Of a DNA stretch of 64,000 nt, positions 16,143 through 38,437 are shown piece after piece (the stretch's first letter is position 1; the number at the start of each line of letters is the position of its first letter). The notes under the pieces are model-generated. The model did no database searches and had not been told where the DNA came from. It was given only the letters and a program-made list of their open reading frames with translations. The translations under genes were made by a program, and so were the position numbers. The stretch is from a candidate division WS6 bacterium OLB20 (GTDB lineage: Bacteria > Patescibacteriota > Dojkabacteria > B142 > OLB20): positions 274,124-338,123 of the forward strand of contig JYNZ01000003.1 of assembly GCA_001567355.1 (NCBI GenBank), given 5' to 3'.

Positions 16143-16648
16143 ACAGATTTAGGCATTGCAAAAGGCTTTCAGACAAAGCAATTAAATACAGCAAAAATTT
16201 AATCGCTGAATATAGTGTAGGATAAATAAACTCTTAGTACAACAAGGAAAACGCTAAATTATTGTTGATAACTCCTTACTTTCCCGGAAACCATCGTGCC
16301 CACGTAACAGAGTGCCCGAAATTACTGAATCACCTTGCATAACATGAAGATCAACTAAAGCACGCCCGAATCGCACCACAGCTGTGGATGTCAGGGGGAT
16401 AGACGTATCCAGAACCTTTCCACAACCAATATCAGAATCAAAAGTAGACTGATAGAAATTATTCAGAATGCCTGAAATACAGCAATATACTGTTAACGGA
16501 AAAATCTGCGGAGAACGCCGCACAAAATGTGCACATAATTAGCCTGTCCATTACTAAGTATGCTGATGTGTGGGCGCTTCAGATATTATCCAGGCAATAA
16601 AAAAGGAGCGGGGAAACCGCTCCTTTAAAGAATCAAGACCTGAATTAA

Positions 16649-17747
16649 TCAGGCCCCGTGCCTGATGTTGAGTATGTCACCTTCTTTTACGACATAGTCC
16701 TTACCCTCGACACGCAACTTGCCTGCAGTCTTTGCACCCAGCCAGCCACCGGTTGCTACAAAGTCTTCGTACGATACGACTTCGGCCCTGATAAACTTGT
16801 CCTCGAAGTCTGTGTGGATCGCACCTGCTGCTTGCGGAGCCGTGCTGCCGGAACGTACACTCCACGCCCGGACTTCTTTTTTTCCGGCTGTAAAAAAACG
16901 TCATCAGACCCAGAACCGTATATGCCTCTCTTGTTAATTGCTCAAGGCCCGTATACTCGATACCAAGCTCCTGCATAAACTCACTGAGCTCATCAGGAGC
17001 CAGCCTTGAGAGTTCATACTCCTGTTTAATGTCAAGTGGAAGTACCCGCGCGGCATCAGGAAGACCAAGTCTTTGTCGCAACATCTTTTCGACCTCCGGA
17101 CCCGTCCTGGACCATCTTCCGTTAATCACATAGATTACCGGCTTATCTGTGAGCAGACGCAACTGTTTTCTGAAGGCAGACAGATCTCTGTCGTCAGCAT
17201 CTGCAGACACAGTAATCGCAAGTTGTCCTTTTTCGAGTGTTTCACGGATGTCGTGTATGAGCGCTAGATACTTCTCTCCACTGGAGTCCTTTCTGGCCTC
17301 ACGCGCTATCCTTGTCTGTTGCTTTTCGACAGTGTCGAGATCTTTCAGGATCAGTTCGGTCTCTATTGTCTCTCTGTCGCGGACAGCATCCACCGTACCG
17401 TCGACATGGACAACGTCATCATCAATAAAATCCCGGATGACGTGTACAATCGCATTAGTCATGCCAATATGGCCCAGAAAGTCGTTGCCAAGCCCTTCAC
17501 CCTCATGCGCACCCTTAACAAGCCCGGCAATATCATTAAACTCGACAACGGCGGGAACAATACTGTCCGTCTGAACGATATCTGCCAGCACCTGCAGCCT
17601 TGTATCAGCCACCGGAACCACTCCGACGTTTGGATCGATTGTACAGAACGGGTAATTCTCAGCCGCTATAGTCTGATTCGTTAGTGCGTTAAACAATGTG
17701 GATTTTCCAACATTCGGTAACCCGACAATTCCAAGTGAGAGAGACAT
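16649..17747 (-). CDS. ychF: ribosome-binding ATPase YchF (Obg-family GTPase), interrupted by a 1-nt frameshift in an A7/T7 run at 16891..16897
   Basis: G1 motif [18 protein letters not shown]; correct TGS C-terminus ([23 protein letters not shown]...[19 protein letters not shown]) is in another frame ending at 16649. Confidence 0.85.
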
Positions 17748-17757
17748 TTTAAAGGAT

Positions 17758-19164
17758 TTAAAGTGTAATGGATTGTTTCCAGTCCGGTATGTGAGCAGGA
17801 ACACCGTCATTTGTAAGAATACTGGCCAACGCTTCGCTACGCTCAGGCTCTGCGTGCACCAGGAACGCCTGCTTAAGTCGCTTCAGATCGTACAGTGACA
17901 GCCATTGCTGCAGCGTTGGCGAATCCGCATGGGCTGAAAACCCGCGAAGATAATGCACCCCCGCCCTAACCTGAACATCTTTTTTGTTTATGGAAATCTG
18001 ACTAGCGCCGTCAACCAGTGATCGTCCTGTAGTCTGCTCAGCCTGGAATCCGACGAAGACTAATGAACTGTTAGTATCCGGAGCGTGTGAGGCTATATGA
18101 TGCATGATCCTACCGCCCTCGGCCATACCGCTGCCAGCGATTATGATGCTTTTTGTTGCCGATGCCAGCCTTAGCGATTTCTTGTGGGTTCTGATATATC
18201 GAAGCTGATCGAAATCGAACCGTCTATTGCTCTGTCGCTTTGCAGTTCTAGGTTTCCTGCTGTTTTCCGCAGAATACTCGGTTATAACACCAAAATGGTC
18301 AGTACGGTCATTAAAGTATCCGGAGAACTGTGTGTAGATTTTAGTCGCCCGTATCGCCATCGGACTATCAATATAAACTTGAACATCTCCGTTAATGCGA
18401 CCTTGATCGAAGGCGATCGACAGAATTTCAAGTAGTTCTTGCGTACGATGTATAGCAAAGCATGGGATTATAACATTTCCATCACGTTCGGTCGTTTTGG
18501 TTATTACACTGATCAATTCATTCAACGTCTCGTTGCGATCCGGATGTTCAATGCCACCATAGAGTGACTCCATAGTTATGTACTCTGGAGAGAAGCTTGT
18601 ACCATTACTGAAGGTGTTAATGATTGTCTGATCAGCCCGACCGATATCACCCGAAAATAACAGCTGTCTTCCGCTGATTGTAATCTGCACGCTTGCTGCT
18701 CCAAGAATATGTCCTGCGGGGACAAAGCGAACCGTGATGCCCTCTGCCGGTTGAAAGTCCTTACCGAAGATCTCTGTACGGAACATTGTCAGAGACTTCA
18801 TTGCGTCACGCGTATCATAGAGGATACCCGGCAGCGTGTATGGCATTGCTTCTGAATACTCGAACGTGCCTTGTTTTTTTGCCTCCAGCTCCTGGATCTT
18901 GGCCGAGTCCAGCAGTACAAGCTCACTCAGTGCTGCTGTTGGTGGTGTCATATAGATAGGTCCTGCAAACCCCTCCCTGACCAGCCTTGGGATAAGTCCG
19001 CAATGATCCATGTGCGCGTGAGTAAGTATCACAAAATCTATTTCGGACGGGACAAAACCGAACGGCTCCTTGTTTCGATCCTCCACATCGGGTCCCTGAA
19101 ACATACCGCAGTCGATTAGTATTTTTCTGCTGTCATCCTCTAGTAAGTAACAGGAGCCGGTCAC
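17758..19164 (-). CDS. MBL-fold beta-CASP ribonuclease (CPSF73/RNase J-like)
   Basis: HAHMDHCG motif (ILTHAHMDHCG), beta-CASP and RNA-specificity region; 468 aa. Confidence 0.75.
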   Translation of the reverse strand: MTGSCYLLEDDSRKILIDCGMFQGPDVEDRNKEPFGFVPSEIDFVILTHAHMDHCGLIPRLVREGFAGPIYMTPPTAALSELVLLDSAKIQELEAKKQGTFEYSEAMPYTLPGILYDTRDAMKSLTMFRTEIFGKDFQPAEGITVRFVPAGHILGAASVQITISGRQLLFSGDIGRADQTIINTFSNGTSFSPEYITMESLYGGIEHPDRNETLNELISVITKTTERDGNVIIPCFAIHRTQELLEILSIAFDQGRINGDVQVYIDSPMAIRATKIYTQFSGYFNDRTDHFGVITEYSAENSRKPRTAKRQSNRRFDFDQLRYIRTHKKSLRLASATKSIIIAGSGMAEGGRIMHHIASHAPDTNSSLVFVGFQAEQTTGRSLVDGASQISINKKDVQVRAGVHYLRGFSAHADSPTLQQWLSLYDLKRLKQAFLVHAEPERSEALASILTNDGVPAHIPDWKQSITL

Positions 19165-19364
19165 GGTCCCTGCTGCGCCTAAAAAACGTTACCTGCATCC
19201 TGAATTGATATGAAATATGTAATATATCTTTACTGTGGATGTGCTGCCTTGCAGCTACTGCATCCGCAATTATAACACTGCTCCTGTTACGATACTACCG
19301 CGGACCTCTCAACCAACTGAACAAGTATCGACTATCCTGTACACATCATTCATGTGTAAGCTTT

Positions 19365-20817
19365 TTACTCAGTTTTCATATCCCTCGACATTTCTGATGC
19401 TATTTTTAGCAGAGTATCGCGCTCGTTTAGTATTGGTTCTTCTATGACCATATCGAGGATTCTGTTCAAAATATTTCCCATTACAGGTCCGGGACTTATC
19501 CCCATTTGCTTCAAATCTTCACCGCTGATAGACAGATCAGATATTTTCAACACCAGCTCCTGGGACCTGACCTGAGAGATACGTTTCTCCAGTTCCCTGA
19601 TCTCTGAGGGATCAAAACTCGACTTCGGGTTTGCTGTAGCATCCGCTATACGCAGCTTAAACAGGTCCTCGAGCAGGTCCTCGCCCACCCGCTGAATAAA
19701 TCGCCTTACTGCACTGTCTGTCCACCCGCCATCACTATCCTGTAGTTTCTCCATTCCATGCTCTTTTCTCCAGTCAGCCGACGGGTAATAAAACATATGC
19801 CAGCGAATAAGTTCTGAAACTCGGGTTATCTCACGGCTGGAATACCGTAACCTGGTCATAATCTCCTTAGCTATTGCTGCGCCTGCAACATCATGACTGT
19901 AAAAATGAATACCGGTCTCGTCCTCACTGCGTGTGGAGGGCTTTCCGATATCATGTAACAGGGCTGCAAGCCTGACTGAGTCCGGAGCAAGATCCAGCGT
20001 TTTAAGGCTATGTGTGTAGACATCGTCTTCGTGCCACTCGGGCTGTGTCACACCAATCGTCTCCAGCAGCTCAGGCATGAACAACCCCAGAAGGCCTGAT
20101 CTTCGCATAAGATCGATACCTGTCGATGGTTTCGGCGAATGCAGCAGCAACTTGTTGAGCTCATCCCTGATACGTTCGCGCGAGATCTGATCAGCAACAT
20201 GCAGTGTTTCTGTAATAGCTTCAAATGTACGCGGTTCGATCTCAAATCCAAGCTCAGCTGCAAGTCTGCACGCCTTATACGAGCGTAGACCGTCTTCACT
20301 TAGGCGCTCAAGCGGATCGCGCACAGAACGGATGATCCTGGCTGCAAGGTCTGCATTACCTCCAAAAGGGTCAACTATCACCTCATCAGTCGTGGCTGAA
20401 GCGTCGAACAGATCGGCAAAATCTATTGCCATTGCATTGACCGTAAAATCCCTTCTGGCAAGATCTTCCTCCAGTGCGGTGGAAAACTCGACCTTTCCGG
20501 GCCAGCGACCGCCATAATAATCCTCTTCTTTTCTGTAGGTTGTCACCTCAACTTCAAACCGTTCCCCCTGTTTATCTTCCATCAACACCAGCACAGTGCC
20601 GAATGCCGCATTTGTGGTCACTGACTTTGAAAAAAAGACCTGCAATCTGGTCAGGGAGGGCATTTGTAGCAAGATCATAATCCTTGGGGTTTCGTCCCAG
20701 CAGGATATCACGCACAGCACCACCGACAAGATGAGCCTCAAAGCCATTACTGATCAGTACATCTGCCACCCTGCTGACATATTCGGGGATTTTTGACTGT
20801 ATCTGTTCTACCGTCAT
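19365..20817 (-). CDS. cca: CCA-adding tRNA nucleotidyltransferase with HD domain, split by a frameshift in an A7 run at 20630..20636
   Basis: N-terminal Pol-beta NTase head (LVGGAVRDILLGRNPKDYDLATNALP) in ORF 20572..20817; remainder (RRDFTVNAMA..., HD domain LLHDIGK) in ORF 19365..20747. Confidence 0.85.
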
Positions 20818-22262
20818 TGTCCGGACTCTCCCGCGTAACGCCAGGCATGACCTGCTGCGCCATCCTCGGCAATTACTCCAAATGTATTCAGTAACTCCGC
20901 GCGGATAGCATCCGCCTCTTCATACTGCTTATTATTGCGTGCAAGCTCTCTGTTTCGGAGTTTCTCCTCTATCGTCTCAATCTCTTCAGGTGTAAATTTA
21001 CGCAGACTTTCCCAGCCTACAATGCCGAGGACTGTATCAAAATCCTCCATGGCGGCAAGCTTGGCAGCAGGATCAAGATCAGCATCGAGAAGGTCACTGA
21101 CTACAGCGAGCGCCTTTGGCATATTCAGATCATCCTCAAGTGCCGAAGTGAAATCTGTCTTGAATGACTCCGGCGCCTTTTCTGCCCGCTTTGCATGTGC
21201 CAGCCAGGTTACAACAGCATCCCGGATAGTCTTCCTTCTGGCATCAGCAGCCAGCAGTGCCTCCCAGGTGAAGTTCAGAATCTGCCTGTAATGGGCCGCG
21301 AGGAAAAAATACCGCAGCGATAAGGGGTCTATGCCCTTCTCAGCAAGATCATCAAGTGTGTAGGCATTGCCAAGGCTTTTACCCATTCTTTTTCCATCAA
21401 CCCGCAGAAATGCGCCATGCATCCAGAAGCGAACAAACTGCTCTCCGGTTGCCGCCTCTGCCTGTGCGATCTCGTTGGTATGATGCACAGGAATATGGTC
21501 AGTGCCTCCGGTATGGATATCGATCGGTTGCTCCAGATACGCAAGCGACATGGCAGAACACTCGATGTGCCACCCTGGATAACCTCTCCCCCAAGGGCTG
21601 TCCCACTGCATCGAGTGGTCGGGCTGATTCAGCTGCCACAGACGGAAGTCAAAGGGGTTTCGTTTTGTCTCATCCTTTTCTACATCTGTGCGAACAGCTA
21701 CCATCTTTTCATCAAGCTCCTGACCAGCAAGTTCCCCGTAGCCCTTGAACTTTGACGTATCGAAATAGACCGCACTTTCCGTCACATATGCGTATCCCTT
21801 GTCGATTAATGTCGAAATCATGTCTATCTGCTCCCGAATATGTCCAGTGGCCCGCGGAAGAACGTGCGGCATTTTAATGCCAAGCGCTTCGATATCTTCG
21901 ATAAAGCGTTCTGTATAATATTCAGCAACTTCCCAGACAGTCTTATTCTCCTTAGCCGCAGCCTTTTCCATTCTGTCGAGACCATCATCTGTATCTGTGA
22001 TCTCAATATCCCCCTGCTTCTTTTTATCCTCGTCTGTCATCGTAAGATGCCCGACATCAGTGATATTCATAACCTGGCGCACTTCATAGCCAAGGTATTC
22101 GAGTGTCCTGCGAAGAATATCAGCAAACACGTATGTCCGGTGGTTGCCTATTGTCAGCCTGGAATATACAGTCGGTCCGCAGTTGTACATCCCGACCTTT
22201 CCCGGCGTCTGAGTCGTGAAACTTTCTTTTCTTTTAGTTGCGGTATTGTAAAGATGGAGCAT
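20814..22262 (-). CDS. cysS: cysteine--tRNA ligase
   Basis: MYNCGPTVY...HIGN class-I HIGH region, KMSKS as KRMGKSLGN; ATGA-type overlap with cca start. Confidence 0.9.
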   Translation of the reverse strand: MLHLYNTATKRKESFTTQTPGKVGMYNCGPTVYSRLTIGNHRTYVFADILRRTLEYLGYEVRQVMNITDVGHLTMTDEDKKKQGDIEITDTDDGLDRMEKAAAKENKTVWEVAEYYTERFIEDIEALGIKMPHVLPRATGHIREQIDMISTLIDKGYAYVTESAVYFDTSKFKGYGELAGQELDEKMVAVRTDVEKDETKRNPFDFRLWQLNQPDHSMQWDSPWGRGYPGWHIECSAMSLAYLEQPIDIHTGGTDHIPVHHTNEIAQAEAATGEQFVRFWMHGAFLRVDGKRMGKSLGNAYTLDDLAEKGIDPLSLRYFFLAAHYRQILNFTWEALLAADARRKTIRDAVVTWLAHAKRAEKAPESFKTDFTSALEDDLNMPKALAVVSDLLDADLDPAAKLAAMEDFDTVLGIVGWESLRKFTPEEIETIEEKLRNRELARNNKQYEEADAIRAELLNTFGVIAEDGAAGHAWRYAGESGQ

Positions 22263-22510
22263 ACACAAATACTACATGTCTGATCCCAAAATTTACAGTC
22301 TGTTTGATGCGAAAATACGGTTTTTACCGTCACCACCGTGTCTGTATTCCTCTGAATCAGGACAGAAACATATCGCTGTATTACGGCAGATACAGAAAAA
22401 TATTACTCAGTGCGGTCGGGAATAATCAGACAGAGATGCAATTATCTCAGCGGTGTACGGACGGTTTGCGTAATAGTACGTGGATAAGTATTCGCGAATG
22501 TGGGGAATTA

Positions 22511-23128
22511 TCAGAAACCTGAACGGCCGCTCAACGCACGCTCAAGTGTAGTACTGTCTGCATAATCAAGATCAGCACCGGATGGCAGTCCGCGGGCCAG
22601 ACGGGTTATACTGACGCCGGCAATACCCTCAAGCTCTTCTTTTAAATACATTCCTGTGGCCTCGCCTTCGAGGTTAGGATTGGTTGCAATCACAAGCTCC
22701 ACAGTTGAATCACTAACAAGCCTTTTGACTCTGGCCACAAGTGTACCGATATTCAACTGTTCGGGACCGATTCCTTCTACAGGCGAGATCAGCCCGCCCA
22801 GCACGTGGTAAATCCCCTTATAGCTGCCGGTACGCTCAAACGCGAACAGATCCAGAATGTCCTCAACCACGAGGATTTCAGAGTGATCACGCGAAGGATT
22901 GGAACATACCGCACAGGTATCGGTACCCTGGTCAGTAATGTTGTGACACTCACGACAGAATGCGATATCCCGCTTAATTGACACAAGCGAATCGGCAAAG
23001 TCCGAAACGTATTCAGCTGGTGCATGCACCAGCTGAAAAACTATTCTAGCTGCGGATTTTGGACCTATGCCGGGTAATTTTGCAAAGTGGTCGATAAGTC
23101 TCTCGACCGGTCCGGGAAGTGACTTCAT
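22511..23128 (-). CDS. recR: recombination protein RecR
   Basis: HhH (LPGIGPKSAARI), C4 zinc finger (CRECHN...CAVCSN), Toprim domain. Confidence 0.9.
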   Translation of the reverse strand: MKSLPGPVERLIDHFAKLPGIGPKSAARIVFQLVHAPAEYVSDFADSLVSIKRDIAFCRECHNITDQGTDTCAVCSNPSRDHSEILVVEDILDLFAFERTGSYKGIYHVLGGLISPVEGIGPEQLNIGTLVARVKRLVSDSTVELVIATNPNLEGEATGMYLKEELEGIAGVSITRLARGLPSGADLDYADSTTLERALSGRSGF

Positions 23129-23433
23129 CAGCTGCCAAGCATACCTTTGAGCTGATTAATATCCATATCCTTCATCATTTCCTTCTGCAGGCGCTTTTGC
23201 GCATCCTTCATTGCCTGCTTGAGACCCTTTACAAGTGCTTTTTTCTCTTCGGCACTGAGCAGACGCTCCTCGATCTCGATCTCTTCGATCTCCTGCGTGC
23301 CGTTAATGGTTATCTCAACCAGCTCATCCTCACTTTTGCCGGTGACGTGGATGGCCTTCATTTTCTTCTGCATGGCACGTGCCTCTTTTTGCAGTTTGTA
23401 GAGCTCTTTTATCTGTCCAAATGCTCCTCCCAT
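23128..23433 (-). CDS. ybaB: nucleoid-associated protein YbaB/EbfC
   Basis: 101-aa YbaB-like sequence; dnaX-ybaB-recR order. Confidence 0.85.
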   Translation of the reverse strand: MGGAFGQIKELYKLQKEARAMQKKMKAIHVTGKSEDELVEITINGTQEIEEIEIEERLLSAEEKKALVKGLKQAMKDAQKRLQKEMMKDMDINQLKGMLGS

Positions 23434-23471
23434 GATTATGAATCAGTAATAAGTATAAGTCGGGTAAACGA

Positions 23472-25053
23472 CTATATCATATCAGAAAAGACTTCTTCGA
23501 CGATATCACTGTTTGAGGATGCTGCTGTAGACTCGGGCGCGCGCGTGGTCTGGATTGCCTCATCAAGCGTACAGCGCATCAGAATCTTAACGCCAAACAA
23601 CTCGTGCGTAACCGATGCGAAAATATCCTGGCTGCGCTTCTGTTCAAGCCTCGATTTATGAAACTTATACGGAACACTGAGCAGAAGGTTGCCCTCTTCA
23701 AGACCGTCCAGACGGGCTTTTGTCAGCATTGCCACCATGTGGGGATTAATTTTTTTGCATCCATGCAGTATCTGATCCCAGCCTGACCTGAGACTTTCCA
23801 TGGACAGCGCTGCCGGATCCTCAGACACCGGAGCTTTAGAAGCAGTGTCTGCTGAATCTGAGAGTTCCTCTGTGTGCTCCTCCTCCTCGTCCTCCTCTTC
23901 GACCTCATGAGACACAGGTTTCTTCGCTGCCGATTTTTTAGCAGCAGGACTGACCTTCTGATAAGAATTCGTACTCGCTTTGCCAGCAGGGATATTAACC
24001 GCAAGACCTGCATCATCAGTTGTGATCATCACTGCTGCGACTTCAAGCGGCAGGACAGGGATCAGTGCTGAGCGCATATCACCGGCCGCCTGCATAAGAT
24101 GCCGGATGATTGCCGTTACTGCCCCAAGTGAATCAGCGTCCGCTTCGCCTGATACAATAGACGCCATGTGAGAACGTGCCGACTCCAGGAGCTGGGTTAT
24201 CAGCTGCTGCATATTTACCCCGCTCTCCTCAGCCTTTGCAATTGCGGCAACTGCAGCAGAACGTTCACGTGCGAGTAGTGCCCGGTAAAGCTCACCGACA
24301 ATTTCCGAACTTGCATAACCCAGGACATTCTCGACATCTTCACGATTAATGATTCTGTCTTTAACATAACCGTATGATGACAGGACTTTTTCAAGAATGG
24401 TCTCGGCATCGCGGAAGCTTCCGCGACCGGCTTCAACCACTAGTTCAAGAGCATCCTGCTCAAATGAGATACCTTCACTCTCAAGTATGCGTTCAAGTTT
24501 GGAACGCAGCTCCTCGCGGCTGGCCAGTTTGAAATCATAGCGCTGTGTCCGCGAAATTATCGTAAGTGGAAGTTTATGCGCTTCAGTAGTCGCGAGAATG
24601 AATACAACGCGTGCAGGGGGCTCCTCAAGCGTTTTTTAGGAGGGCGTTGAATGCCTCGGTGGTCAACATGTGCACCTCGTCGATAATATAGACCTTAAAT
24701 GCTCCCTCTGCAGGCAGAAAACCTACCCGTTCCTTTAGTTCACGGATTTCGTCTATGCCGCGGTTTGAAGCTGCGTCAATCTCGATAAGATCAAGAAAAC
24801 TGCCGTCGTTGATCGCACGGCATGCCGCGCAATCGTTACATGGCTCTCCTTCTTTGGGGTTGAGGCAGTTGAGGGCTTTGGCAAGGATACGGGCAGTACT
24901 TGTCTTGCCCGTACCCCGCGGTCCTGTAAAAAGGTACGCGTGAGCTACGCTTTTATCGAGAACCGCTTGCCTGAGAACTTTTTTTATTGCCTGCTGACCG
25001 AATAACTCTTTAAAGTTTTTCGATCTGTACTTTCTGTACAGTACCTGTGGCAT
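23472..25053 (-). CDS. dnaX: DNA polymerase III subunit gamma/tau, interrupted by a 1-nt frameshift in a T6 run at 24632..24637
   Basis: Walker [10 protein letters not shown], zinc module [16 protein letters not shown]; correcting one base continues as [35 protein letters not shown] into ORF 23472..24440. Confidence 0.85.
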
Positions 25054-25079
25054 GGCGGGTGGGCATTTACGTCAAATAA

Positions 25080-25289
25080 TTAGCCTTTACGTGCGACTTT
25101 GCGAGCCGCGGAGCGTCTGCGACGTTTGATTTTCGACCAGTATTTTCTGAACTCGTGCCGATATTCCGTAGGCTTAGTACGGTATCGGTTTTTGAGCAAT
25201 TCGGCCGGTATGTTCTCCCGGTTAGCCTCACGCCAAAGCATTTTTAATGCCTGGTCGATCGGCATATCATCATGGACAATAACTGCCAT
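25080..25289 (-). CDS. rpsU: 30S ribosomal protein S21
   Basis: 69 aa, basic C-terminus, S21-like N-terminal region. Confidence 0.8.
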   Translation of the reverse strand: MAVIVHDDMPIDQALKMLWREANRENIPAELLKNRYRTKPTEYRHEFRKYWSKIKRRRRSAARKVARKG

Positions 25290-25379
25290 TTAGAAACACC
25301 TCCTTGGTATTTTGGGGTTGCCCCCTTGCTAAGTCAGGCCGGGAAGCCTGAGAAAAATGTGAACCAATTATACCAGACT

Positions 25380-27002
25380 TCAGCCTCCACAGATACCCCT
25401 AATGAGACTGCTTGTAAAGTCCGGGAACAGGTCCTTGAATACAATCAGCAGCATGAAGATGATAACCAGAACAAAGGTTACTGTTCCGATTATTTCCTGT
25501 TTTTTCTCGGAGATCGGTCGTTTTCTGATTGCCTCAATTATCAGAAACAGCAGATTGCCTCCGTCAAACAGCGGGACAGGAAGAATGTTTGCAAACGCAA
25601 GCGCCACACTGATAAGACCGGCAAGATTGATGATACTGATAAAGTCACGCAGCCGAACCAGCTCATTAATAATACCTGCCACACCAACGACAGAACTTAC
25701 ACCCTGTGACACAGGCTCGATGCAGCCCTCGGCAATAGAACTTGAGATCAGAGTTCCAAGACCTGTGACTGTGTACGCTGTCATATTGAATGTATGCAGG
25801 ACACCGCTGAGAAGTCTGTTGTCATTGTAGTTAACACGGACAATACCATCAAGGTAGCCGGTATTCTCGCCAAGTCCGGCTCCGAGAATGGGCTGCCCTT
25901 CTTCGACTTCGGGAAGCACCAGCATTGTCTCTTCGGTATCACCCTCCGCATTGACATAGCGGATGTCTGCTGTACCGCCCTGATTCTCGCGCAGCAGTTC
26001 GAGCATGCGGCTTACAGTAGTAACATCCTCACCGGCAAAGCTGAGGATCACATAATTGGGTTCAAGCCCTGCTTCAGCAGCAGGCATACCTTCTGTTGTC
26101 GAGACAATGCGGACCTTCCCGGCCACATCCTCATCAAAATTTGTCAGTACCCCATCGCCGTTCAGAGCAAGTGTTACGTCCCTGTAACCGTCAGGTGTGA
26201 ATATCTGAAGCTGCATCGGTTCATTATAGTTTTCCTGCAGCAATGTCTCAAACTCATCCCTTGTGACAAAACGCCTCCCCTCGGCATCGACAATCAGGCT
26301 GCCGGCAAGTTCACTGCTGTCCTCATCGTAGACATCAAACAGGAACGGCACATCACTTGTTTCTGCACCTGCAAATACCGGGTTTCCAAGGCGGACGAGG
26401 TCAACGCTGAAATTGGTAAACAGAAACATGAAGTAGAAAATCGCGATCGCCAGTACAAAGTTCATAAATACGCCGGCAACGATGACAAGAGCACGGTCCA
26501 GAATCGGCTGGTTATCGTAATTACCGGGGTGATTGGGGATATAGTCTTTTGCATACCACGTCTGCAGTTTAGCATAGTCATCCTTTTTCATTGCTGAACG
26601 CTGCTCCTCCATGAACTGCTCAACTTTATGGAACGCATCTGTTTCGGGATTGATACCCTTTTTCTTCAGCTCGGCAATTGCAAAGGTTTTGTCTGCAGGG
26701 TCATACTTACCGGCAGTAAATCGCGAAAAGCTGCTTGCATCCTGATCACCAAGCATCTTTACATATCCGCCGAGCGGAATAAGTTTCAGGCTGAAGGTTG
26801 TATCACCTCTGCGTCTGGACCAGAGTGTCCTGCCAAACCCGATAGCGAATTCCTGGACGACAATTCCTGCGCGTCGTGCGGCAAGAAAGTGACCCAGCTC
26901 GTGGATGAGAATAAGAAGACCGATCAGCAGTACGAAGATAATCGCCGTCAGCAGGAACGAAACAGTTTGATCCATGGTAAAAACATGTAGGATTAACGAC
27001 AA
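25380..27002 (-). CDS. rseP: RIP zinc metalloprotease RseP/site-2 protease (M50) with PDZ domain and a long insertion
   Basis: HELGHFLAAR active site, C-terminal TM segments, PDZ; 540 aa. Confidence 0.8.
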   Translation of the reverse strand: MSLILHVFTMDQTVSFLLTAIIFVLLIGLLILIHELGHFLAARRAGIVVQEFAIGFGRTLWSRRRGDTTFSLKLIPLGGYVKMLGDQDASSFSRFTAGKYDPADKTFAIAELKKKGINPETDAFHKVEQFMEEQRSAMKKDDYAKLQTWYAKDYIPNHPGNYDNQPILDRALVIVAGVFMNFVLAIAIFYFMFLFTNFSVDLVRLGNPVFAGAETSDVPFLFDVYDEDSSELAGSLIVDAEGRRFVTRDEFETLLQENYNEPMQLQIFTPDGYRDVTLALNGDGVLTNFDEDVAGKVRIVSTTEGMPAAEAGLEPNYVILSFAGEDVTTVSRMLELLRENQGGTADIRYVNAEGDTEETMLVLPEVEEGQPILGAGLGENTGYLDGIVRVNYNDNRLLSGVLHTFNMTAYTVTGLGTLISSSIAEGCIEPVSQGVSSVVGVAGIINELVRLRDFISIINLAGLISVALAFANILPVPLFDGGNLLFLIIEAIRKRPISEKKQEIIGTVTFVLVIIFMLLIVFKDLFPDFTSSLIRGICGG

Positions 27003-27037
27003 CTATAGTAGCATGCAGCAGGGAACGTGGGAAACCG

Positions 27038-27592
27038 TTAAACGGTCATCAGCTCTTTTTCTTTATCGCCGGCAATGGTTGCTATTCGCTCGTTTGCATC
27101 ATCTACCAGTTTCTGAAGCTCTTTTTCCATCCGTTCAAGATCGTCCTCGGTGATGAGGTTTTTGCTCTTCTGCTCATCCAGATAATCCTTAACGTCTTTG
27201 CGGACCTGACGGACTGCAATGTGAGCCTCCTCCGCCTTGGCCTTCATGAGTTTGACATACTCTTTACGGCGTTCTTCTGTCAGCGAAGGGATCGGCAGCT
27301 TGATGGTGTCACCGTCGAGAATCGGCTGGATACCCATGTCGGATTCTTTGAGGGCCTTCATCAGGGGTTCAATGGCGTTTTTATCCCATGGTTTGACTGT
27401 CATCAGGGTGGCATCAACGACTGTGATGTTACCTATCTGATTTACCGGCATCTGCTGTCCGTAGACATCAACTCGTACCGAGTCAAGAAGCTGTGGCTGC
27501 GCGCGGCCTGCACGCATCGAGGCAAGGTCCTTCTCAAGGAAGGACGCTACCTCGTCAAATTTTTTTGGAGCCTGATCAAGTGTTACTGACAT
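27038..27592 (-). CDS. frr: ribosome recycling factor
   Basis: 184 aa, full-length RRF similarity. Confidence 0.9.
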   Translation of the reverse strand: MSVTLDQAPKKFDEVASFLEKDLASMRAGRAQPQLLDSVRVDVYGQQMPVNQIGNITVVDATLMTVKPWDKNAIEPLMKALKESDMGIQPILDGDTIKLPIPSLTEERRKEYVKLMKAKAEEAHIAVRQVRKDVKDYLDEQKSKNLITEDDLERMEKELQKLVDDANERIATIAGDKEKELMTV

Positions 27593-27598
27593 AGCAGA

Positions 27599-28206
27599 TT
27601 ATAAACCACATGCCACTGAACTGCCAGCGATCTCAAATCTGGCGAATCTTCCGATCTCGATTTTTTCACCGATTGCTGCGACAGCCTCACTGATAAGGTC
27701 GCCTATAGTTTTGCTGTCATCTTTTACGTACTTCTGATCCAGCAGCACAATCTCTTCGTAGACTTATCCAGGCGTCCGGCAACGATCTTCTCTACTACGT
27801 TTTCAGGCTTACCTTCTGTACCCTGCTTTGCAAGTGCCGATTCCTTCTCGACCAGTTCTGCAGGGACCTCTTCCCGGCTGATGTATTCCGGCTTGCTCGC
27901 TGCAATGTGCAGAGCGATATTGTGAGCAAGCTCACGGAATGACTCGTTTCGGGCTGTAAAGTCTGTCTCCGAGTTCAGCTCGACCAGAACAGCAATCGTT
28001 CCCTCACCGTGAATGTAATGAGCAATGAAGCCGTTGTCAGCCTGCTTGTCCGCACGTTTCGCAGCCTTGGCAATACCCTTCTCACGCAGGTATTCAATTG
28101 CCTTGTCCATATCACCTTTACTGTGCTCCAGAGCCTCTTTAACGTTTGTCACGCCGGCGCCTGTTGCCTTGCGGAGTGATTTGATCTGATCCAGTGTAAT
28201 ATCCAT
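27599..28206 (-). CDS. tsf: elongation factor Ts, with an apparent 1-nt deletion near 27764
   Basis: N-terminal UBA-like LRKATGAGVTNVKEAL; corrected frame gives KIVAGRLDK-(F)YEEIVLLDQKYVKDDSKTIGDL... to a stop at 27599. Confidence 0.85.
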
Positions 28207-28230
28207 TACAGTAATTCTAAAAAGTAGAGC

Positions 28231-29253
28231 TTATTTTTTGCGGGCACTTGATGCCTGCTTACGCTTAGCTGTCTCGCGTGTCTTCTGAATATCCTCAAGC
28301 ATTCCTTTTGACCCTGCGGTCCTCGACTTTGAAGGAATCTCAGCCTTGGCATCGCGCTGTTTGACCTCAGGAGTTGCTGCGACTTCAACACGCTCTGAAT
28401 CCTCCTGTGCAGATTTTACAATTTTCACCTCATAGGTGGAATAATCAACAAGGTCGTGTTTAATGCCTTTTCCTTCATTTCCTTTTTTAACAGCCTGTCC
28501 CAGCAATCCGACAAGCAGGGAAATCGATCCGATTGCATCGTCGTTTGCAGGGATTGCGAAGTCTACATCTTCAGGATCGCAGTTTGTATCTACGAGTCCG
28601 ACGATCGGAATACCCATCGCGCGAGCCTCGGATACAGCATTTTTTTCAAACTTTGTATCAACGATCACGATTGCCTTGGGGTATTTGGTCATTGTCTTCA
28701 TACCCTCGTATAGCCTGTTCATTTTTTCCCAGTCTTTTTTCATCTGAGAGATTTCAAACTTTGTACGACCCTCAACTCCGGTCGAGAACTCCTGCTCAAG
28801 TCCGTTAAACCGCTTAAGACTCTGGCGGATCATGTCAAAATTTGTCAGCAGACCACCTGGCCAGCGGTGAGTAATAAAGTATGCTCCGGCATCAATTGCC
28901 ACGTCACGCACAATATCAGAGGCCTGACGTTTTGTACCGACAAACATTACCTCGCCGTCAGAAGCAGCCTGGGCAAGAAACTGCATAGCAGCCTCAAGAG
29001 CAGGAAGTGACTTTGAGATATCGATAATATGGATCTGCTCACGCTTGCCGAAGATGAACTTCTGCATTTTCGGATTCCATTTCTTTGACTGGTGACCGAA
29101 TTGAACTCCTGCTTTGAGGAATTCCTTGACATCGGGCAGGTCAAAGGTATAGGTTTTGGCAACTTTTTTGGTTGCCTTTGGTGCGCTGCCCTTTTTGGCA
29201 GCAGGTGTTGCTGTAGTAGCCATAGTAAGTTTTCTCCTTTTTGTGTCCTCCAC
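28231..29253 (-). CDS. rpsB: 30S ribosomal protein S2 with C-terminal extension
   Basis: uS2 core (AGVQFGHQSKKWNPKM, RWPGGLLTNF); true start may be Met at 29223. Confidence 0.9.
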   Translation of the reverse strand: MEDTKRRKLTMATTATPAAKKGSAPKATKKVAKTYTFDLPDVKEFLKAGVQFGHQSKKWNPKMQKFIFGKREQIHIIDISKSLPALEAAMQFLAQAASDGEVMFVGTKRQASDIVRDVAIDAGAYFITHRWPGGLLTNFDMIRQSLKRFNGLEQEFSTGVEGRTKFEISQMKKDWEKMNRLYEGMKTMTKYPKAIVIVDTKFEKNAVSEARAMGIPIVGLVDTNCDPEDVDFAIPANDDAIGSISLLVGLLGQAVKKGNEGKGIKHDLVDYSTYEVKIVKSAQEDSERVEVAATPEVKQRDAKAEIPSKSRTAGSKGMLEDIQKTRETAKRKQASSARKK

Positions 29254-29339
29254 CCGCTAATCCCTCATGAGAGGGACAAAAGGATTCTTGCAGGTGTGTG
29301 AATTAAAATGACAGGGGAATTATAGCACATTAATCCTGC

Positions 29340-31571
29340 TTACGCAGTGATCCCCAGCTCTTTCTTCTTCTGTGCAACTTCTTTCTTGTTGATTCTGATG
29401 ACTTCTTTTTTGTCTGGATAATCCGGATGAGCCCAGAATTCTCCGAACCTTCCGTTACGCAGTACCATTTTCTTTCCATCTTTTGTTTTTGGCGCAGTTC
29501 CGTAAATTTTACGGAACACTGCTGTCGTAAACTCCAGAGGTTTTGCGTCTTTGACCTTGGGGTAATCCGGGTGCGCCCAGAATCTGCCGAATCTGCCGTT
29601 TTTTAGAAGGTAATCACGTCCATCATCAGTTTTTGGAGCAGGTTTGTACGTCTTGAGAAAGTCCTCATCGTATGCCTCCTGTGCCAGCTCTGCTTCTGTT
29701 CTGCCATCGATATTGCGCATACCCTTACAGTCAGGAAATCTGGAGCAGCTGTGGAACCTGCCGTAGCGTCCCAGTTTGATCACCATGGCGCTGTCACAGA
29801 CAGGACACTTGAATTCACTGTCACCAAGCACGGTAAAATCGTCGCGCTTGATCTCCTCCTCTTTGACAAGAAGATTTTTTTCAAACGGAGTCCAGAACTC
29901 GCGCATCATCTTTACCCAGTCAAGCTTACCCTCCGCGACCTCATCGAGCTGTTCCTCCATATCAGCTGTAAATCCGGTGTCTACAACGTCGGGAAAATGC
30001 TTTTCGAGAAGCCTTGTGACAACTATTCCTGTATCAGTCGGAAACAGGTACCGTCCTTCTTTTTCAACATACTTGCGCGCCATAATTGTTGAGATTGTGG
30101 GCGCATAGGTTGATGGACGACCGATACCGTTTGCCTCCAGCTCTTTGATCAGCGACGCCTCCGAGAACCGTGCCGGAGGTTTGGTAAAGTGCTGCAATCC
30201 TGCAATCTGGGAGGGATAGAGCTGCTGTCCTGTTTTAAGCCTGGGAATGATCTGTTCAGATACGGCATCCTGATACACGGCCAGATAGCCTGGAAACAGC
30301 ACACGCTGACCATTCAGTTTAAACTGGGCTTTACCTGCATCGACCACAACCTGCGTTGCTTCTATCCGTGCATCCTGCATTTGTGAAGCTAGCGCCCGGT
30401 TTCTGATGATGGTGTATATCTTTGAGGCTGCAGCATCAAGCTTAAGTCCCGCAGCTGTCTTGCTCATCTGCGTAGGCCTGATTGCCTCATGCGCCTCCTG
30501 GGCAGACTGCGATTTGGTCTTGTACATTCTGGGGTTATCAGGAACGTAATCCTCTCCCCACTCTTTGGCAATGAAATTCCGGGCCTGCTTGAGTGCATCA
30601 GCAGAAAGGTTTACGGAATCTGTACGCATATATGTGATGTATCCAGCCTCGTAGAGCTTCTGAGCGATGCTCATAGTCTGCTTGGCTGACATACCGTATT
30701 TGTTTGCAGCCGCCTGTTGCAATGTACTCGTGGTAAACGGCGGCCTGGGAGAGCGCTTCTGCTCCTTTGCAGTTATATCAGATACAATCCAGTCCGCCTT
30801 GAGTACGTCGCTGATTATCCCCTCAGACTGTTTCTGGTTTGTCAGATCTGTCTTATCCCCGTTATAACGAAACAGCTCAAACAGCATCCCCTCCTTGAAC
30901 TCGTGGGTCTCATCATCACTGAGGTTAATGACCACTTCGGGCTGCCCATTTCGCTTCTTTTCGTGCAGAAGCGCCTTAAGGGACCAGTACTCTTCAGGAT
31001 TAAACGCATCTCGCTCACGCTCGCGGTCTACAATCAGCTTTAATGCAACAGACTGTACGCGTCCAGCTGAAAGACCGAAGCGGATTTTTTTCCAGAGCAA
31101 TGGTGAAAGCTTGTAGCCTACTATGCGGTCAAGTACACGACGTGCCTGCTGTGCATCTACAAGGTTAAGATCAATCTCTCGCGGATGCTTTACCGCATCT
31201 GTAATTGCCGTTTTTGTGATCTCGCTGAATACAATGCGTTTTACGGGCTTGCCTCTACTGATAGTGTCTCCCTTCTCGTTTATCGCTTCCAGCTGAATAG
31301 CGACATGCCATCCGATAGCTTCGCCTTCGCGGTCAGGGTCGACAGCAAGGATAAGTTCATCCGCCTTGGCAAACGCCTGTTGAAGCTTCTCCAGAGAAGC
31401 TTCTTTTGTAACCACGTACGTCGGTGCGAAATCGTTATCAATATCAACACCCAGGTCCGATTTGGGCAGATCTGCAATATGTCCCTTTGAGGCCAGAACC
31501 TTGTAGTCCTTACCCAGGTATTTTTCGATAGTCTTGGCTTTTGACGGTGATTCTACTATTACAAGCTTCAT
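29340..31571 (-). CDS. topA: DNA topoisomerase I
   Basis: Toprim N-terminus (MKLVIVESPSKAKTI), catalytic-Tyr region, C-terminal zinc ribbons and repeated NGRFG.FWAHPDYP motifs. Confidence 0.9.
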   Translation of the reverse strand: MKLVIVESPSKAKTIEKYLGKDYKVLASKGHIADLPKSDLGVDIDNDFAPTYVVTKEASLEKLQQAFAKADELILAVDPDREGEAIGWHVAIQLEAINEKGDTISRGKPVKRIVFSEITKTAITDAVKHPREIDLNLVDAQQARRVLDRIVGYKLSPLLWKKIRFGLSAGRVQSVALKLIVDRERERDAFNPEEYWSLKALLHEKKRNGQPEVVINLSDDETHEFKEGMLFELFRYNGDKTDLTNQKQSEGIISDVLKADWIVSDITAKEQKRSPRPPFTTSTLQQAAANKYGMSAKQTMSIAQKLYEAGYITYMRTDSVNLSADALKQARNFIAKEWGEDYVPDNPRMYKTKSQSAQEAHEAIRPTQMSKTAAGLKLDAAASKIYTIIRNRALASQMQDARIEATQVVVDAGKAQFKLNGQRVLFPGYLAVYQDAVSEQIIPRLKTGQQLYPSQIAGLQHFTKPPARFSEASLIKELEANGIGRPSTYAPTISTIMARKYVEKEGRYLFPTDTGIVVTRLLEKHFPDVVDTGFTADMEEQLDEVAEGKLDWVKMMREFWTPFEKNLLVKEEEIKRDDFTVLGDSEFKCPVCDSAMVIKLGRYGRFHSCSRFPDCKGMRNIDGRTEAELAQEAYDEDFLKTYKPAPKTDDGRDYLLKNGRFGRFWAHPDYPKVKDAKPLEFTTAVFRKIYGTAPKTKDGKKMVLRNGRFGEFWAHPDYPDKKEVIRINKKEVAQKKKELGITA

Positions 31572-31582
31572 ATAAATAAGTA

Positions 31583-32598
31583 TTACATTGCTGAATAAAG
31601 TCCGGTGGCAGATGTACGTATGTATCCCTGCAACTCAAGAGAAAGCAGTAACTTTCTCAGATCCGACTTTGCCATATTAACAGATTCCGTCAAATGCTCA
31701 AATGAACGTACACCCGTTTTAACCAGCGCAAGGACCTGCAGAGCCTCTACAGCAAGATTTTCTGCTACGGGCAGACCACCCTCATAGCCGAGTGATTCGA
31801 GTACGTCCACAGCACTGCACACAAGTCTTGCTACGCTGTCTCTGATCAGAATGTTACAACCGCGACCGGACAGTGATGCGGGAGAATATGGAAAAGCAAA
31901 TACATCACGTCCGTAATCAAAGGCAAGCCTGGCCGTAATAAGAGCGCCGCTTTTTTCCGGTGCCTGTGTGACCACGGTTGCATTACTGAGCCCGGCGACA
32001 ATCCGGTTACGACGGGGGAAGACAAAACGGTCATACCCGTCCGTCCGATAAAACTCGGACAAAACCAGCCCTGTCTCAATTATCTGATTGTACAAATCTG
32101 TATTACGTTTGGGAAACGGCTGAGTAATTCCTGTTCCAAGGACTGCGATTGTTGGAGCACCGGCATTGAGGGCCGTCTGGTGAGCAACGGCATCAACTCC
32201 CTGGGCAAGACCGCTGACTGTGATGATCCCTGCCTGCGCAAGAGAACATACAAGGTCCGTTGTCAGACTGCGCCCGGCGGCCGACATCTGTCTTGTACCG
32301 ACGACAGCAACCATCGTACCGCGCAGCAGTGAGGTGTCACCTGCGTAAAACAGTACCGTTGGAGCATCTGGTACGGACGCGAGCTGAACCGGGTATTCAG
32401 GTTCTCCAAGAACGAGATAGTCTTTAGTACCAATTTCGTCACACAGTTGTTTTGAGAGTACTATCTGTTCAGCAAATTTTTTTGTACACATGTGAGGAAC
32501 TGTCTGACAGAAAGCTGGATGCAGAGCCGAAACGCTCAATAATGGTTGTGTATGCTGCCCTGCCTATACCTGCAGTGTTGGCAAGTATAAGCCTGGCG
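31583..32598 (-). CDS. dprA: DNA processing protein DprA (Smf), N-terminus in a different frame (frameshift near 32530..32545)
   Basis: Rossmann core VVGTRQMSAAG...SGLAQGVD; N-terminal MTQSERHARLILANTAGIGRAAYTTIIERFGSASSF from an ATG near 32598 is out of frame with the main ORF. Confidence 0.8.
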
Positions 32599-32617
32599 TG
32601 ACGTTCTGATTGTGTCA

Positions 32618-34509
32618 TTAGTTTTCGCAGGCAGGTGCGAAATCATTGTAGACACAATTTATAAATTTGTTCATAATCGGAACCGTTTTATATCCACGGC
32701 CGCCCCACTGCTGCATTACTGTAAAGCAATAATTCTCATTGTCGTGATCAAAACAGCCGGTAATCCATGAGTGTGCTCCCCTGTAATACACCCCCTGGAT
32801 GTATTCACCGGCATCTGCAGAACCGGTTTTTGCGATAATACTGCTGTCCAGCTGACCCAGTCCCTGTGCTGTTCCGGTAACTGCAGCGGCACGCATCCCC
32901 TCTCTGACAGTGTCGATCGTACTTCTTGAAACGTCAAGCGTGCGCACGACCTCCGGCTCGAAAACCCTGACTGTCTGACCGGTGGGTGTCTCAATTCTGC
33001 TGACGAGATGCGGCTTAACGATCTTTCCTCCATTGGCAATTGCCGATGTCATGACAGTCATCTGCAAGGGGGTTACAGTGACAAGACCCTGTCCGATTAT
33101 CGTATTACACTCGTCACCGGTATACCAGGGTTCGCCCAGCAGCTTCTGTTTCAGTTCGGGTGAAGCATGGTACCCGACTGCTCTGCAGGCAGATCAATCC
33201 CTGTCTTCTGTCCAAGTCCGAATCTATCCGCATAATCCATCAATGTCCGGATTCCATTTCGCTTCTGATTAATCTCCAGCGCAACATTGCAGAAGTAGAT
33301 GTTACTCGACTTTTCAATTGCTTCAATTACATTGACGTTGCCGAGGTAACCGCTGTCAGCCTCACAGAATTTGATATCGCCAGGCAGTTCCATACATCTG
33401 TTTGACAGGAATTCGGTGTTTCGAGATACCACCTGCTCCTCAAGTCCCGCAGTTGCTCCGATAATCTTCCAGATCGACCCCGGTGGCAATTGAAGACCAA
33501 TCGTGCGGTCCAGCAGCGGGGTTTTAGGATCGTTCAGCAGCGCGCCGAAGTCATTTGCGCTGATCCCTTCTGCAAACAGATTATTGTCGTATGAAGGGAT
33601 GCTTACCATTGCTTTGACCTCGCCTGTCCTGCTGTTCATGATTACGCCAGCGCTGGCAAAGGCCTCAACTTCTTCCAGCTGACGTTGCATAATGTCGGTC
33701 AGATAGCGCTGCCAGTTTGCGTCCGCAGTCAGATGGAGGTTATCACCAAACCGTGCCTCCTGGGGCGTATATGTCCGCTCGCGCTCATCCAGCACCCCGC
33801 GCTCCCTAACCTCAATACCCTCGACTCCTCGAAGCTGACTGTCATAACTTCTCTCGAGGCCGACTTTTCCTACCTGGGACTCCGAGTAGATGCCGTTTTC
33901 AACATCTGCTTCGGTCGGATCACCGACATATCCGATGAGATGAGAGAAATAATGCCGTTCGGGGTATTCACGTTCGGGCTCTACATTTATATATGCACCT
34001 TTCTGCTGCGGAACAACAGTGGATAGTGCCAGATACTGGTCAAAATCGAGATTACTCTTGAGTGTGACGCGGTCCTGCTGTTTCTTTTTTCCATCTTCGG
34101 AGTATGCCTTGCTTCTGTAAGTAGCAAGCAGTTCGTCCGCAGGTTCATTCATTCCTGCGGCAAGTATCTGCAGCAGCTCCTCTTCGCGGTCCTGCTCAAG
34201 CTCTCCGGGTTTGATAAACAGAGAATATGATGGAAGATTGTAGGCAAGCCGGTTGCCCTGCGCATCAAAAATAAGTCCGCGCGGAGGGACAATACGTGAG
34301 GTGGACTGATTGATCTTTGTAGCAACCAGAAGGTTTTCTCCTCCCTCGATGATCTGCAGACTGAAGAGGTTGAGAAACAGAAAGGAAAATATGCCCAGGA
34401 TCAGCAGGTAAACACCGACGTATCTCCAGGAGAAATCGATCCTTCCCTGTGCCGACGCAGAGCCGACAAAATCAATCCGGTTTCGTTTTGGATTAGTTCT
34501 TAAATGCAT
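32618..34509 (-). CDS. mrdA: penicillin-binding protein 2 (class B transpeptidase), split by a frameshift near 33170..33180
   Basis: SXXK as SIWK in ORF 33151..34509, KTGS(A) in ORF 32618..33067; corrected frame joins them; sits upstream of mreD-mreC-mreB. Confidence 0.85.
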
Positions 34510-34972
34510 TCTCAGGCTTTTTCAGCCGACCGTGAATAAACAGTGCAAGTATCAGTATAGCACCATTTGTCACAAGGCTGACCGGCTCGAGCTGATAGCT
34601 CTGCTGGCCTGAGGTAATAAGGAATACATGCCGCATAATCAGACTGAGCGAAAAAATCAGTGCAGCCTGGAGATACGTATTCTCGCGAGGCAGAAACGAT
34701 GAAAACCTGAACAGCACAGCGGTTATACCCGCTGCAATAAAAAAAGCCACAGCATCCAGTCCCGCAACAGGCCGGAATGCGGCAAGCTCGACAAACAGTG
34801 TACCGGCAATAACCAGCAGCATGCCGCTGCGCGGATGTTTTACCAGGATCAGCATAAGTCCGATCAGATAGATCAGTCTGATCTCACTGAGCGAGGCAAT
34901 ACGTGCACCGGCAAAAAACAGCTCCACAAAAGGCACAAGCAGCACAAGAATGATTGTCAGTATCGTCGTCAT
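34493..34972 (-). CDS. mreD: rod shape-determining protein MreD (polytopic membrane protein)
   Basis: 159 aa, about 5 TM helices, located between mreC and mrdA. Confidence 0.65.
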   Translation of the reverse strand: MTTILTIILVLLVPFVELFFAGARIASLSEIRLIYLIGLMLILVKHPRSGMLLVIAGTLFVELAAFRPVAGLDAVAFFIAAGITAVLFRFSSFLPRENTYLQAALIFSLSLIMRHVFLITSGQQSYQLEPVSLVTNGAILILALFIHGRLKKPENAFKN

Positions 34973-35763: not shown

Positions 35764-35765
35764 AG

Positions 35766-38416: not shown

Positions 38417-38422
38417 TATAAT
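38417..38422 (+). promoter_or_regulatory. candidate -10 element (TGtataat) upstream of the tRNA-Tyr/tRNA-Thr pair
   Basis: tataat preceded by TG, 15 nt upstream of tRNA-Tyr 5' end. Confidence 0.3.
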
Positions 38423-38437
38423 CTAATACGCAATTGC

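Follow-up and report, generated by a model that had tools for sequence, protein, structure and literature searches.

In decaying genomes such as those of Mycobacterium leprae and Sodalis, disrupted genes carry nonsense mutations and larger deletions, the sequence downstream of them is degraded, and essential genes are spared. A second described system is dnaX, the classic recoding gene, in which the recoding sites of E. coli (tau/gamma) and Thermus follow domain III and yield the shorter gamma subunit. In insect endosymbionts, whose genomes are very AT-rich and whose tracts are long (about 9 bases or more), frameshifts are reportedly rescued by polymerase slippage at poly(A) tracts, as Tamas et al. 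are said to have described in 2008. On the technical side, Bragg et al. 2013 (PMC3623719) found that Ion Torrent PGM sequencing produces high-frequency indels about once per 1–2 kb per run, which cause frame-shifts in assemblies, are "most commonly insertions of A/T or deletions of C/G" and are mostly run-specific; the dominant flow error in long homopolymers was under-calling, not over-calling. For the genome considered here, the MAG of the candidate division WS6 (Dojkabacteria, CPR) bacterium OLB20, the source paper reports the use of Ion Torrent PGM 400-bp reads only and describes the drafts as showing "persistent frameshifts, common in IonTorrent data". According to that paper, the 64-kb stretch analysed here (the window) thus derives from flow-based reads without polishing by accurate reads. 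All 19 window proteins found by exact look-up were NCBI OLB20 proteins.

A sequence-only reading of the window had claimed that ychF, cca, dnaX, tsf, dprA and mrdA each need a one-nucleotide correction. To locate frame switches, we aligned the window by blastx with intact homologues taken from related CPR loci, and we determined the exact sites by three-frame reading. Each of the six genes showed a single frame switch, and in 6/6 cases a one-base repair led to a full-length ORF. The comparison with related genomes, which had been proposed as a check, returned intact homologues there and a frame switch in the window for every named gene. Both direct reading of the frames and homologue comparison place the split genes in the deposited OLB20 sequence itself, while for every site we infer the true number of bases.

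All six genes are encoded on the minus strand. In ychF (16649..17747) blastx against homologues showed a switch from frame -3 to -1 caused by one extra base in an A7 run of the window; the coding strand reads T7 where T6 would be in frame. The A7 run had been recognized before at 16891..16897, one base off the position 16892..16898 obtained by three-frame reading. Repair gives a continuous 16-residue junction peptide, and YchF-GTPase_C emerges at 122 bits. The CCA-adding enzyme gene cca (19365..20817) switches from frame -2 to -3, again in comparison to homologues; its A7 run at 20630..20636, whose position had been given correctly, is one base too long (coding T7, with T6 in frame). Unrepaired, its PolyA_pol match is divided into 2-41 and 36-126 over ORFs of 81 and 460 aa with 66 and 44 bits; the repaired 483-aa protein has a single match of 2-126 at 116 bits, and the orthologue in OLB21, a sister MAG from the same dataset, is intact with 482 aa. 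For dnaX (23472..25053) three-frame reading likewise retained the T6 run 24632..24637 as the site of one extra base, the coding strand showing A6 where A5 is in frame. The frame switches from -2 to -3, and both halves are spanned by more than 30 intact homologues. Repair yields FNALLKTLEEPP and lifts the DNA_pol3_delta2 score to 156, compared to 109 when split. The relative L082 reads CTC CTA AAA ACG CTT GAG GAG at this site, which is the window less one A (A5), and there is an intact relative of 526 aa.

In tsf (EF-Ts, 27599..28206) one base is missing at 27762, in agreement with the earlier placement near 27764. The frame switches from -2 to -1 against homologues: a single T is found at 27762 where TT is needed, so that the coding strand reads AAGTCTAC and would be in frame as AAGTTCTAC. 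Repair gives GRLDKFYEEIVLLDQ within a 202-aa protein, the length of the closest relatives, and raises the EF_TS score to 139 vs 94. In dprA (31583..32618) the N-terminal 45 aa lie in frame -3 and the remainder in frame -1, with one extra base in the T7 run 32477..32483 (coding A7, A6 in frame), and repair leads to a 344-aa ORF. The mrdA gene (PBP2, 32618..34509) lacks one base at 33166, where the coding strand has a single G and GG is needed; it reads CCATGCTT, with CCATGGCTT in frame, and blastx against homologues shows a switch from -2 to -1. Its Transpeptidase match, split into 3-143 and 165-297 (94 + 67 bits), becomes 3-297 after repair (181), and at the junction OLB21 and the locus L002 read GTMA(S/T)P, which is the repaired peptide. 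For the latter two genes the one-nucleotide lesion stood but its position did not: the range 32530..32545 given for dprA was about 55 nt off, and that near 33170..33180 for mrdA 5–10 nt off.

Further genes of the window show the same pattern. An ATP-grasp gene on the plus strand (48775..49761) runs through frames +1, +2 and +1, with the N-x-S-x-GG motif on the middle segment; its A6 run at 49399..49404 is one base too long, and the GG at 49517..49518 is one base too short. These two sites, obtained by reading, agree with lesions suspected at 49414 and 49525; repairing both results in an ORF of 328 aa and increases the RimK match from 28 to 43 bits. comEC (57335..59607, minus strand), which the sequence-only reading had missed, probably carries two further frameshifts, as judged from reading the frames only: the window's A6 run at 58270..58275 and the G/C run at 58166..58168 would each be one base too long. 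A 458-aa ORF encodes DUF4131 and Competence (1-233 of 270), the following ORF of 276 aa encodes Lactamase_B, and the double repair joins them in a single 756-aa ORF. Two hypothetical genes on the minus strand, suspected before as the ORF pairs 7891/8103 and 8409/8563, probably contain frameshifts as well, since in both the coding potential, on which this assignment is based, switches frame without a gene boundary. In the first gene (7893..8357), for which no homologue was available, it changes from -3 to -2 at about 8110, the probable frameshift being near 8103..8139, and the frame downstream lacks a start codon; in the second (8409..9645) it changes from -2 to -3 within a 170-nt ORF overlap, near 8600..8660. 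The pair 3567/4931 can be read either way, as its switch falls on an ATG at 5000.

In total the window contains about 11–13 frameshift sites, eight of which, in seven genes (the six named genes and two sites in the ATP-grasp gene), were repaired to full-length ORFs. Every lesion is a change of ±1 nt in homopolymer length, and neither nonsense mutations nor larger indels were observed. All five definite insertions add an A or T to a run read as 6–7, the three deletions affect runs of 1–2 bases (G, probably G, and T), and six sites fall into A/T runs of 6–7. Many other A7/T7 runs within the same genes are in frame. ORFs 3' of the lesions are wholly open and conserved, Pfam domains continue unbroken over the repaired junctions of ychF, cca, dnaX, tsf and mrdA, and the junction sequence agrees with relatives at dnaX, mrdA and tsf. 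In a control scan the aligned part of the window (17.1 kb) gave 4 frame switches vs 16 in 956 kb of 78 other loci, an excess with a Poisson P of ~2.5e-4 by our own estimate from the scan counts. Seven of the 16 control switches are located in MAGs named "MFD ... contig_N", which we take to be nanopore assemblies.

The syntenic locus of the sister MAG OLB21 contains at least 9 frameshifts in 20 kb. There mreC and mrdA are broken, the latter at a different site, and dprA, topA and tsf are each broken twice, tsf at A7 runs; dnaX and cca are intact. Positions differ between OLB21 and OLB20 save for one dprA run in common, where OLB21 shows the same kind of out-of-frame A7 at the homologous Lys-Lys site. 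Among the best 120 EF-Ts matches only the proteins of OLB20 and OLB21 are clearly truncated (157–160 aa); of the more than 100 others, from Dojkabacteria, almost all measure 193–215 aa at 94–100% query coverage and two about 310 aa. TopA scans of genome and metagenome contig collections for the same species gave nearest identities of 57% and 55%, and a chimeric query of repaired junction peptides returned no match of ~100% to in-frame same-species ORFs in a list dominated by DnaX homologues.

We also compared the window to other sequencing runs. Three contigs of SRR1797700, which appears to be a PGM run of the OLB20 project, differ from the window over 3,802 bp by 4 one-base homopolymer indels and by 0 substitutions, so that the indel state changes between runs of the same template without accompanying substitutions. 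One of them has the GG that restores mrdA. Counting against an artefact, the run also shows the cca and dprA 7-mer states of the window. Contigs of this run covering the tsf and dnaX sites were sought via neighboring genes, but frr was not found in the run and the S21 contig ended short of the dnaX site. Also counting against an artefact, the split genes recur in Logan assemblies of SRR29904084 (89-kb contig), SRR29904086 (160-kb contig) and SRR29904083; positions 10572..41571 of the window are matched by the SRR29904084 contig at 100% identity. In the short contigs of SRR29904083 (1.8 and 10.4 kb) no further genes are broken, unlike in SRR1797700, and one of four contig ends in that run lies at a homopolymer. 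A simulated mix of public Dojkabacteria genomes was rejected as the source of these later runs, from which two other NCBI Dojkabacteria EF-Ts proteins are absent. A literature search on the run accessions and on recent Olburgen metagenomes found nothing. We infer that the later runs and the OLB20 assembly have a common error source.

Taken together, the OLB20 frameshifts are with a probability of about 0.93 a sequencing artefact, that is, a data-quality problem without biological meaning. One-base miscalls of homopolymer length would have become fixed in the consensus when the metagenome was assembled from Ion Torrent reads only, and would have slipped past the frameshift-correction step of the authors; in the true organism ychF, cca, dnaX, tsf, dprA, mrdA, the ATP-grasp gene and comEC are most likely intact. 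Homopolymer-prone sequencing or assembly error had been the favored cause from the start and is supported by the PGM-only source, the ±1 homopolymer spectrum, the sister MAG and the changed indel states in SRR1797700.

It is unlikely that one or a few of the indels, among mostly artefacts, genuinely inactivate dispensable genes or make them phase-variable. dprA, comEC, the ATP-grasp gene and the hypothetical genes are non-essential, the dprA A7 recurs both in SRR1797700 and in OLB21, and homopolymer indels are the commonest genuine frameshift mutation. Yet the sites in these genes resemble those in essential genes, their downstream frames are fully open, and competence genes are normally kept in CPR bacteria.

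Recent widespread pseudogenisation of a CPR bacterium by real mutations, essential genes included, is very improbable. It retains some probability because the three later, 2024-numbered runs carry split genes identical to those of the NCBI assembly, and no collection searched held an intact same-species copy. However, about 1 frameshift per 5 kb, striking tsf, dnaX and cca (and topA in OLB21), is incompatible with a viable cell, and in place of mixed lesions with decay downstream we found ±1 indels only. The breaks in the two species sampled together lie mostly at different sites whereas relatives from other studies are intact, and the in-frame mrdA GG in SRR1797700 has by our own estimate a chance of ~2–3% as a random error. 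Pseudogenisation would further require an Ion Torrent-only assembly without a single indel error in 25.8 kb of coding sequence. If SRR29904083, SRR29904084 and SRR29904086 represent independent high-accuracy reads, the indels are real. We consider it no less improbable that such reads reproduce them and that two co-occurring Dojkabacteria with out-of-frame essential genes (about 1 per 2–5 kb) rely on pervasive recoding or error-tolerant expression of a new kind; new biology would follow only from accurate reads that confirm the indels.

Least probable of all is that real indels are bypassed by transcriptional slippage or ribosomal +1 slippage on A/T runs. The six sites in runs of 6–7, the shared out-of-frame A7 at the dprA Lys-Lys position and the history of dnaX as a recoding gene speak for it, but slippage at runs of 6–7 is inefficient, many other A7/T7 runs of the same genes are in frame, and a slippery run is absent at tsf (AAG TCT ACG), mrdA (ATG CTT) and the second ATP-grasp site. 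Nor is the out-of-frame arrangement conserved: in related loci ychF, cca, dnaX, tsf and mrdA each align as one intact ORF, as do the EF-Ts relatives, the close relative L082 has A5 at the dnaX site, and only the dprA A7 recurs, solely in the other PGM-derived MAG. A programmed tau/gamma frameshift in dnaX was rejected because the shift falls within the ATPase domain, in its conserved NALLKTLEEPP stretch, instead of after domain III; slippage there could not give a useful short product. An alternative genetic code was dismissed since the lesions switch the frame rather than introduce in-frame stops, and since the standard code had been verified in the source paper.

Truncated proteins of OLB20 and OLB21 have entered NCBI nr and UniRef under names such as "EF-Ts", "DNA polymerase III tau" and "Poly(A) polymerase", where they may distort completeness estimates, pseudogene counts, inferences of CPR gene loss and protein-family alignments. 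Extrapolating the rate of the window, we expect ~200–300 such errors in the whole 1.4-Mb genome.

Compared to the known systems, OLB20 resembles the decaying genomes of M. leprae and Sodalis in having many disrupted genes per unit length, but lacks their nonsense mutations, larger deletions and downstream degradation, and essential genes are struck. It shares with E. coli and Thermus dnaX a shift in the same gene at an A-run; the shift is located at residue ~140 of 526 instead of after domain III, and a relative has an in-frame A5. As in the endosymbionts, frameshifts of conserved genes occur at A/T homopolymers in a small-genome bacterium, although with runs of 6–7, a genome of 49% GC and three sites without any run. 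The resemblance to PGM errors (PMC3623719) lies in one-base indels only, A/T insertions, mostly G/C deletions and a frequency of about one per few kb. Unlike the run-specific indels of Bragg et al. the OLB20 sites persist in the co-assembly and several runs, and unlike typical PGM flow errors, which are under-calls, the errors in long runs are over-calls; the A/T insertions fit the high-frequency-indel class of that study rather than a simple flow-call model.

The sequence-only reading had proposed that ychF, cca, dnaX, tsf, dprA and mrdA each need a one-nucleotide correction, and this is borne out by Pfam searches, blastx, three-frame reading and repair. In the raw ORFs the Pfam domain PolyA_pol of cca is broken into positions 2–41 and 36–126 on two ORFs, DNA_pol3_delta2 of dnaX ends at position 123 of 161 with domain III on another ORF, EF_TS of tsf ends at position 169 of 204, the Transpeptidase domain of mrdA is broken into 3–143 and 165–297, and YchF is without its C-terminal domain. 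When ORFs of related loci were compared by blastx, intact homologues of ychF, cca, dnaX, tsf and mrdA spanned two window frames with abutting junctions; dprA aligned likewise once further loci were added. Three-frame reading placed the lesions at 16892..16898 in ychF and 20630..20636 in cca (both coding T7, in frame T6), at 24632..24637 in dnaX (coding A6, in frame A5), at 32477..32483 in dprA (coding A7, in frame A6), at 27762 in tsf (a single T, in frame TT) and at 33166 in mrdA (a single G, in frame GG). The positions proposed earlier were exact or a few bases away, except for dprA, which was about 55 nt off. Correction of one homopolymer base yields a single full-length ORF in all six genes. 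In repaired ychF, cca, dnaX, tsf and mrdA the Pfam domain runs unbroken over the junction with an increased score, and the junction peptides, GTMASP among them, correspond to the family consensus.

Further sites were located in the window. The ATP-grasp gene, also suspected beforehand, needs two corrections according to reading and repair, at A6 49399..49404 and at GG 49517..49518. A probable pair of frameshifts in comEC (57335..59607, minus strand) adds to the original list: a 458-aa ORF with DUF4131 and an incomplete Competence domain is followed by a 49-codon bridging frame and a 276-aa ORF carrying Lactamase_B, and one-base repairs at 58270..58275 and 58166..58168 produce a canonical 756-aa ComEC. 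For the suspected ORF pairs 7891/8103 and 8409/8563 a codon-usage frame tracker, validated at the dnaX junction, showed frame switches without a gene boundary at ~8110 and ~8620–8640; for the pair 3567/4931 it was ambiguous at 4931/5000. The total amounts to about 11–13 sites per 64 kb, and most of the frameshifted genes lie on the minus strand.

The window has a GC content of about 49%. By exact look-up the NCBI entries of OLB20 (KXK266xx, from a 744,746-bp contig) match 19 of 20 window proteins, gene fragments included; an ATP-grasp fragment whose start codon we chose ourselves had no exact match. A search of two large contig collections gave Patescibacteria/CPR MAGs as the nearest relatives at species level, and their TopA identity does not exceed 57%. 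Two MreB paralogues are present, one in the mreBCD-mrdA block (35766..36821, minus strand) and one standing alone next to the ATP-grasp region (50715..51719, minus strand). The ORF at 9711..16142 (minus strand, 2,143 aa) is intact though long and has no Pfam match on record; its downstream neighbor at 8409..9645 has a weakly K1-lyase_C-like C-terminus, and both products may be surface or tail-spike-like proteins. Tandem genes at 55405..56013 and 56034..56648 (minus strand) encode proteins of ~200 aa each, exceeding the 135-position NDK profile, which aligns to each of them in two separate segments. A duplicated nucleoside diphosphate kinase that has gained an insertion or N-terminal extension may account for the pair.

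In a uniform frame-switch scan the window showed 4 events in 17.1 kb aligned, compared to 16 events in 956 kb for 78 other loci (Poisson P ~2.5e-4, our own estimate from the scan counts). Seven of the 16 control events fall in MAGs named 'MFD ... contig_N', which we take to be nanopore assemblies; such an origin would suggest a like class of artefact there. L035, L043, L050 and L063, loci from MFD-named MAGs, hold frame switches of this kind.

All lesions are homopolymer length changes of plus or minus one; there are no nonsense codons or larger indels among them, and the reading frames past the lesions are fully open. Each of the five definite insertions adds an A or T; of the three deletions, one removes a G, one probably a G and one a T. 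The source study (Speth et al. 2016, PMC4821891) used an Ion Torrent PGM and the 400-bp kit for every library, and its authors describe the drafts as having 'persistent frameshifts, common in IonTorrent data'. PGM 'high-frequency indels' occur about once per 1–2 kb per run, are mostly A/T insertions or C/G deletions, and shift frames in assemblies (Bragg et al. 2013). The lesion spectrum fits this PGM-only history.

Internal controls came from relatives and from run SRR1797700. Among the best 120 EF-Ts matches nearly all are 193–215 aa long and cover 94–100% of the repaired 202-aa query (two are ~310 aa), and the only clearly shortened ones belong to OLB20, at 160 aa, and to OLB21, at 157 aa; OLB21 is the second WS6 MAG from the source study. 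In dnaX a relative of 77% DNA identity reads CTA AAA ACG versus CTA AAA AAC G in the window, and the mrdA junction reads GTMA(S/T)P in OLB21 and in the compared locus L002. The syntenic block of OLB21 (JYPD01000014.1, 1660..9820) carries at least nine frameshifts, mostly at A5–A7 runs and at higher density than in OLB20: in mreC, mrdA (at a different site), dprA (two), topA (two) and tsf (two, both A7 runs). With these genes broken there but dnaX and cca undamaged, the lesions track the dataset and not gene or lineage. In dprA an out-of-frame A7 lies at homologous Lys-Lys codons in OLB20 and OLB21 (4960..4972), which points to a miscall of AAA AAA that depends on context and is shared by both MAGs or, with lower probability, to conservation of the run. 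Three Logan contigs of SRR1797700, 3,802 bp in total, show no substitution against the window but four homopolymer indels of one base, including a GG restoring mrdA and an A4 to A5 change breaking rseP in that run.

Sequencing history, lesion spectrum and internal controls thus support the homopolymer-prone sequencing or assembly error favored by the sequence-only reading, and we put the probability that the frameshifts are a sequencing artefact and no biological feature at roughly 0.93. Its sole practical weight is as a caution to users of the proteins that public databases list for OLB20 and OLB21.

One observation is not fully explained by a sequencing artefact. The split genes recur in the Logan assemblies of three runs with accession numbers in the 2024 range, SRR29904084 (89 kb), SRR29904086 (160 kb) and SRR29904083; a contig of SRR29904084 is 100% identical to window 10572..41571, and the assembled sequence (SRR29904084_51680, SRR29904086_5790, SRR29904083) is identical to the 2016 MAG, every split gene that could be checked included. 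Were the reads behind them both independent and accurate, the indels would be genuine. SRR29904083 also holds the shortened OLB21 tsf, and its short contigs show no extra broken genes, in contrast to SRR1797700. Simulation of the three runs from public Dojkabacteria genomes was checked and rejected. We nevertheless judge real indels unlikely. In two co-occurring species tsf, dnaX, cca or topA would need to be out of frame with no decay downstream, and three sites are without a slippery run for recoding. The GG by which SRR1797700 restores the frame would be a coincidence of ~2–3% by our estimate, and 25.8 kb of coding sequence would need to have been assembled from Ion Torrent reads alone with no indel error. 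The shift in dnaX is not the site of tau/gamma recoding; it lies at residue ~140 of 526 at the conserved NALLKTLEEPP in the ATPase domain.

Among known systems, genome decay should leave lesions of several kinds, and the OLB20 window shows no such mixture. Rescue by poly(A) slippage as in endosymbionts requires longer tracts and leaves the runless OLB20 sites unexplained.
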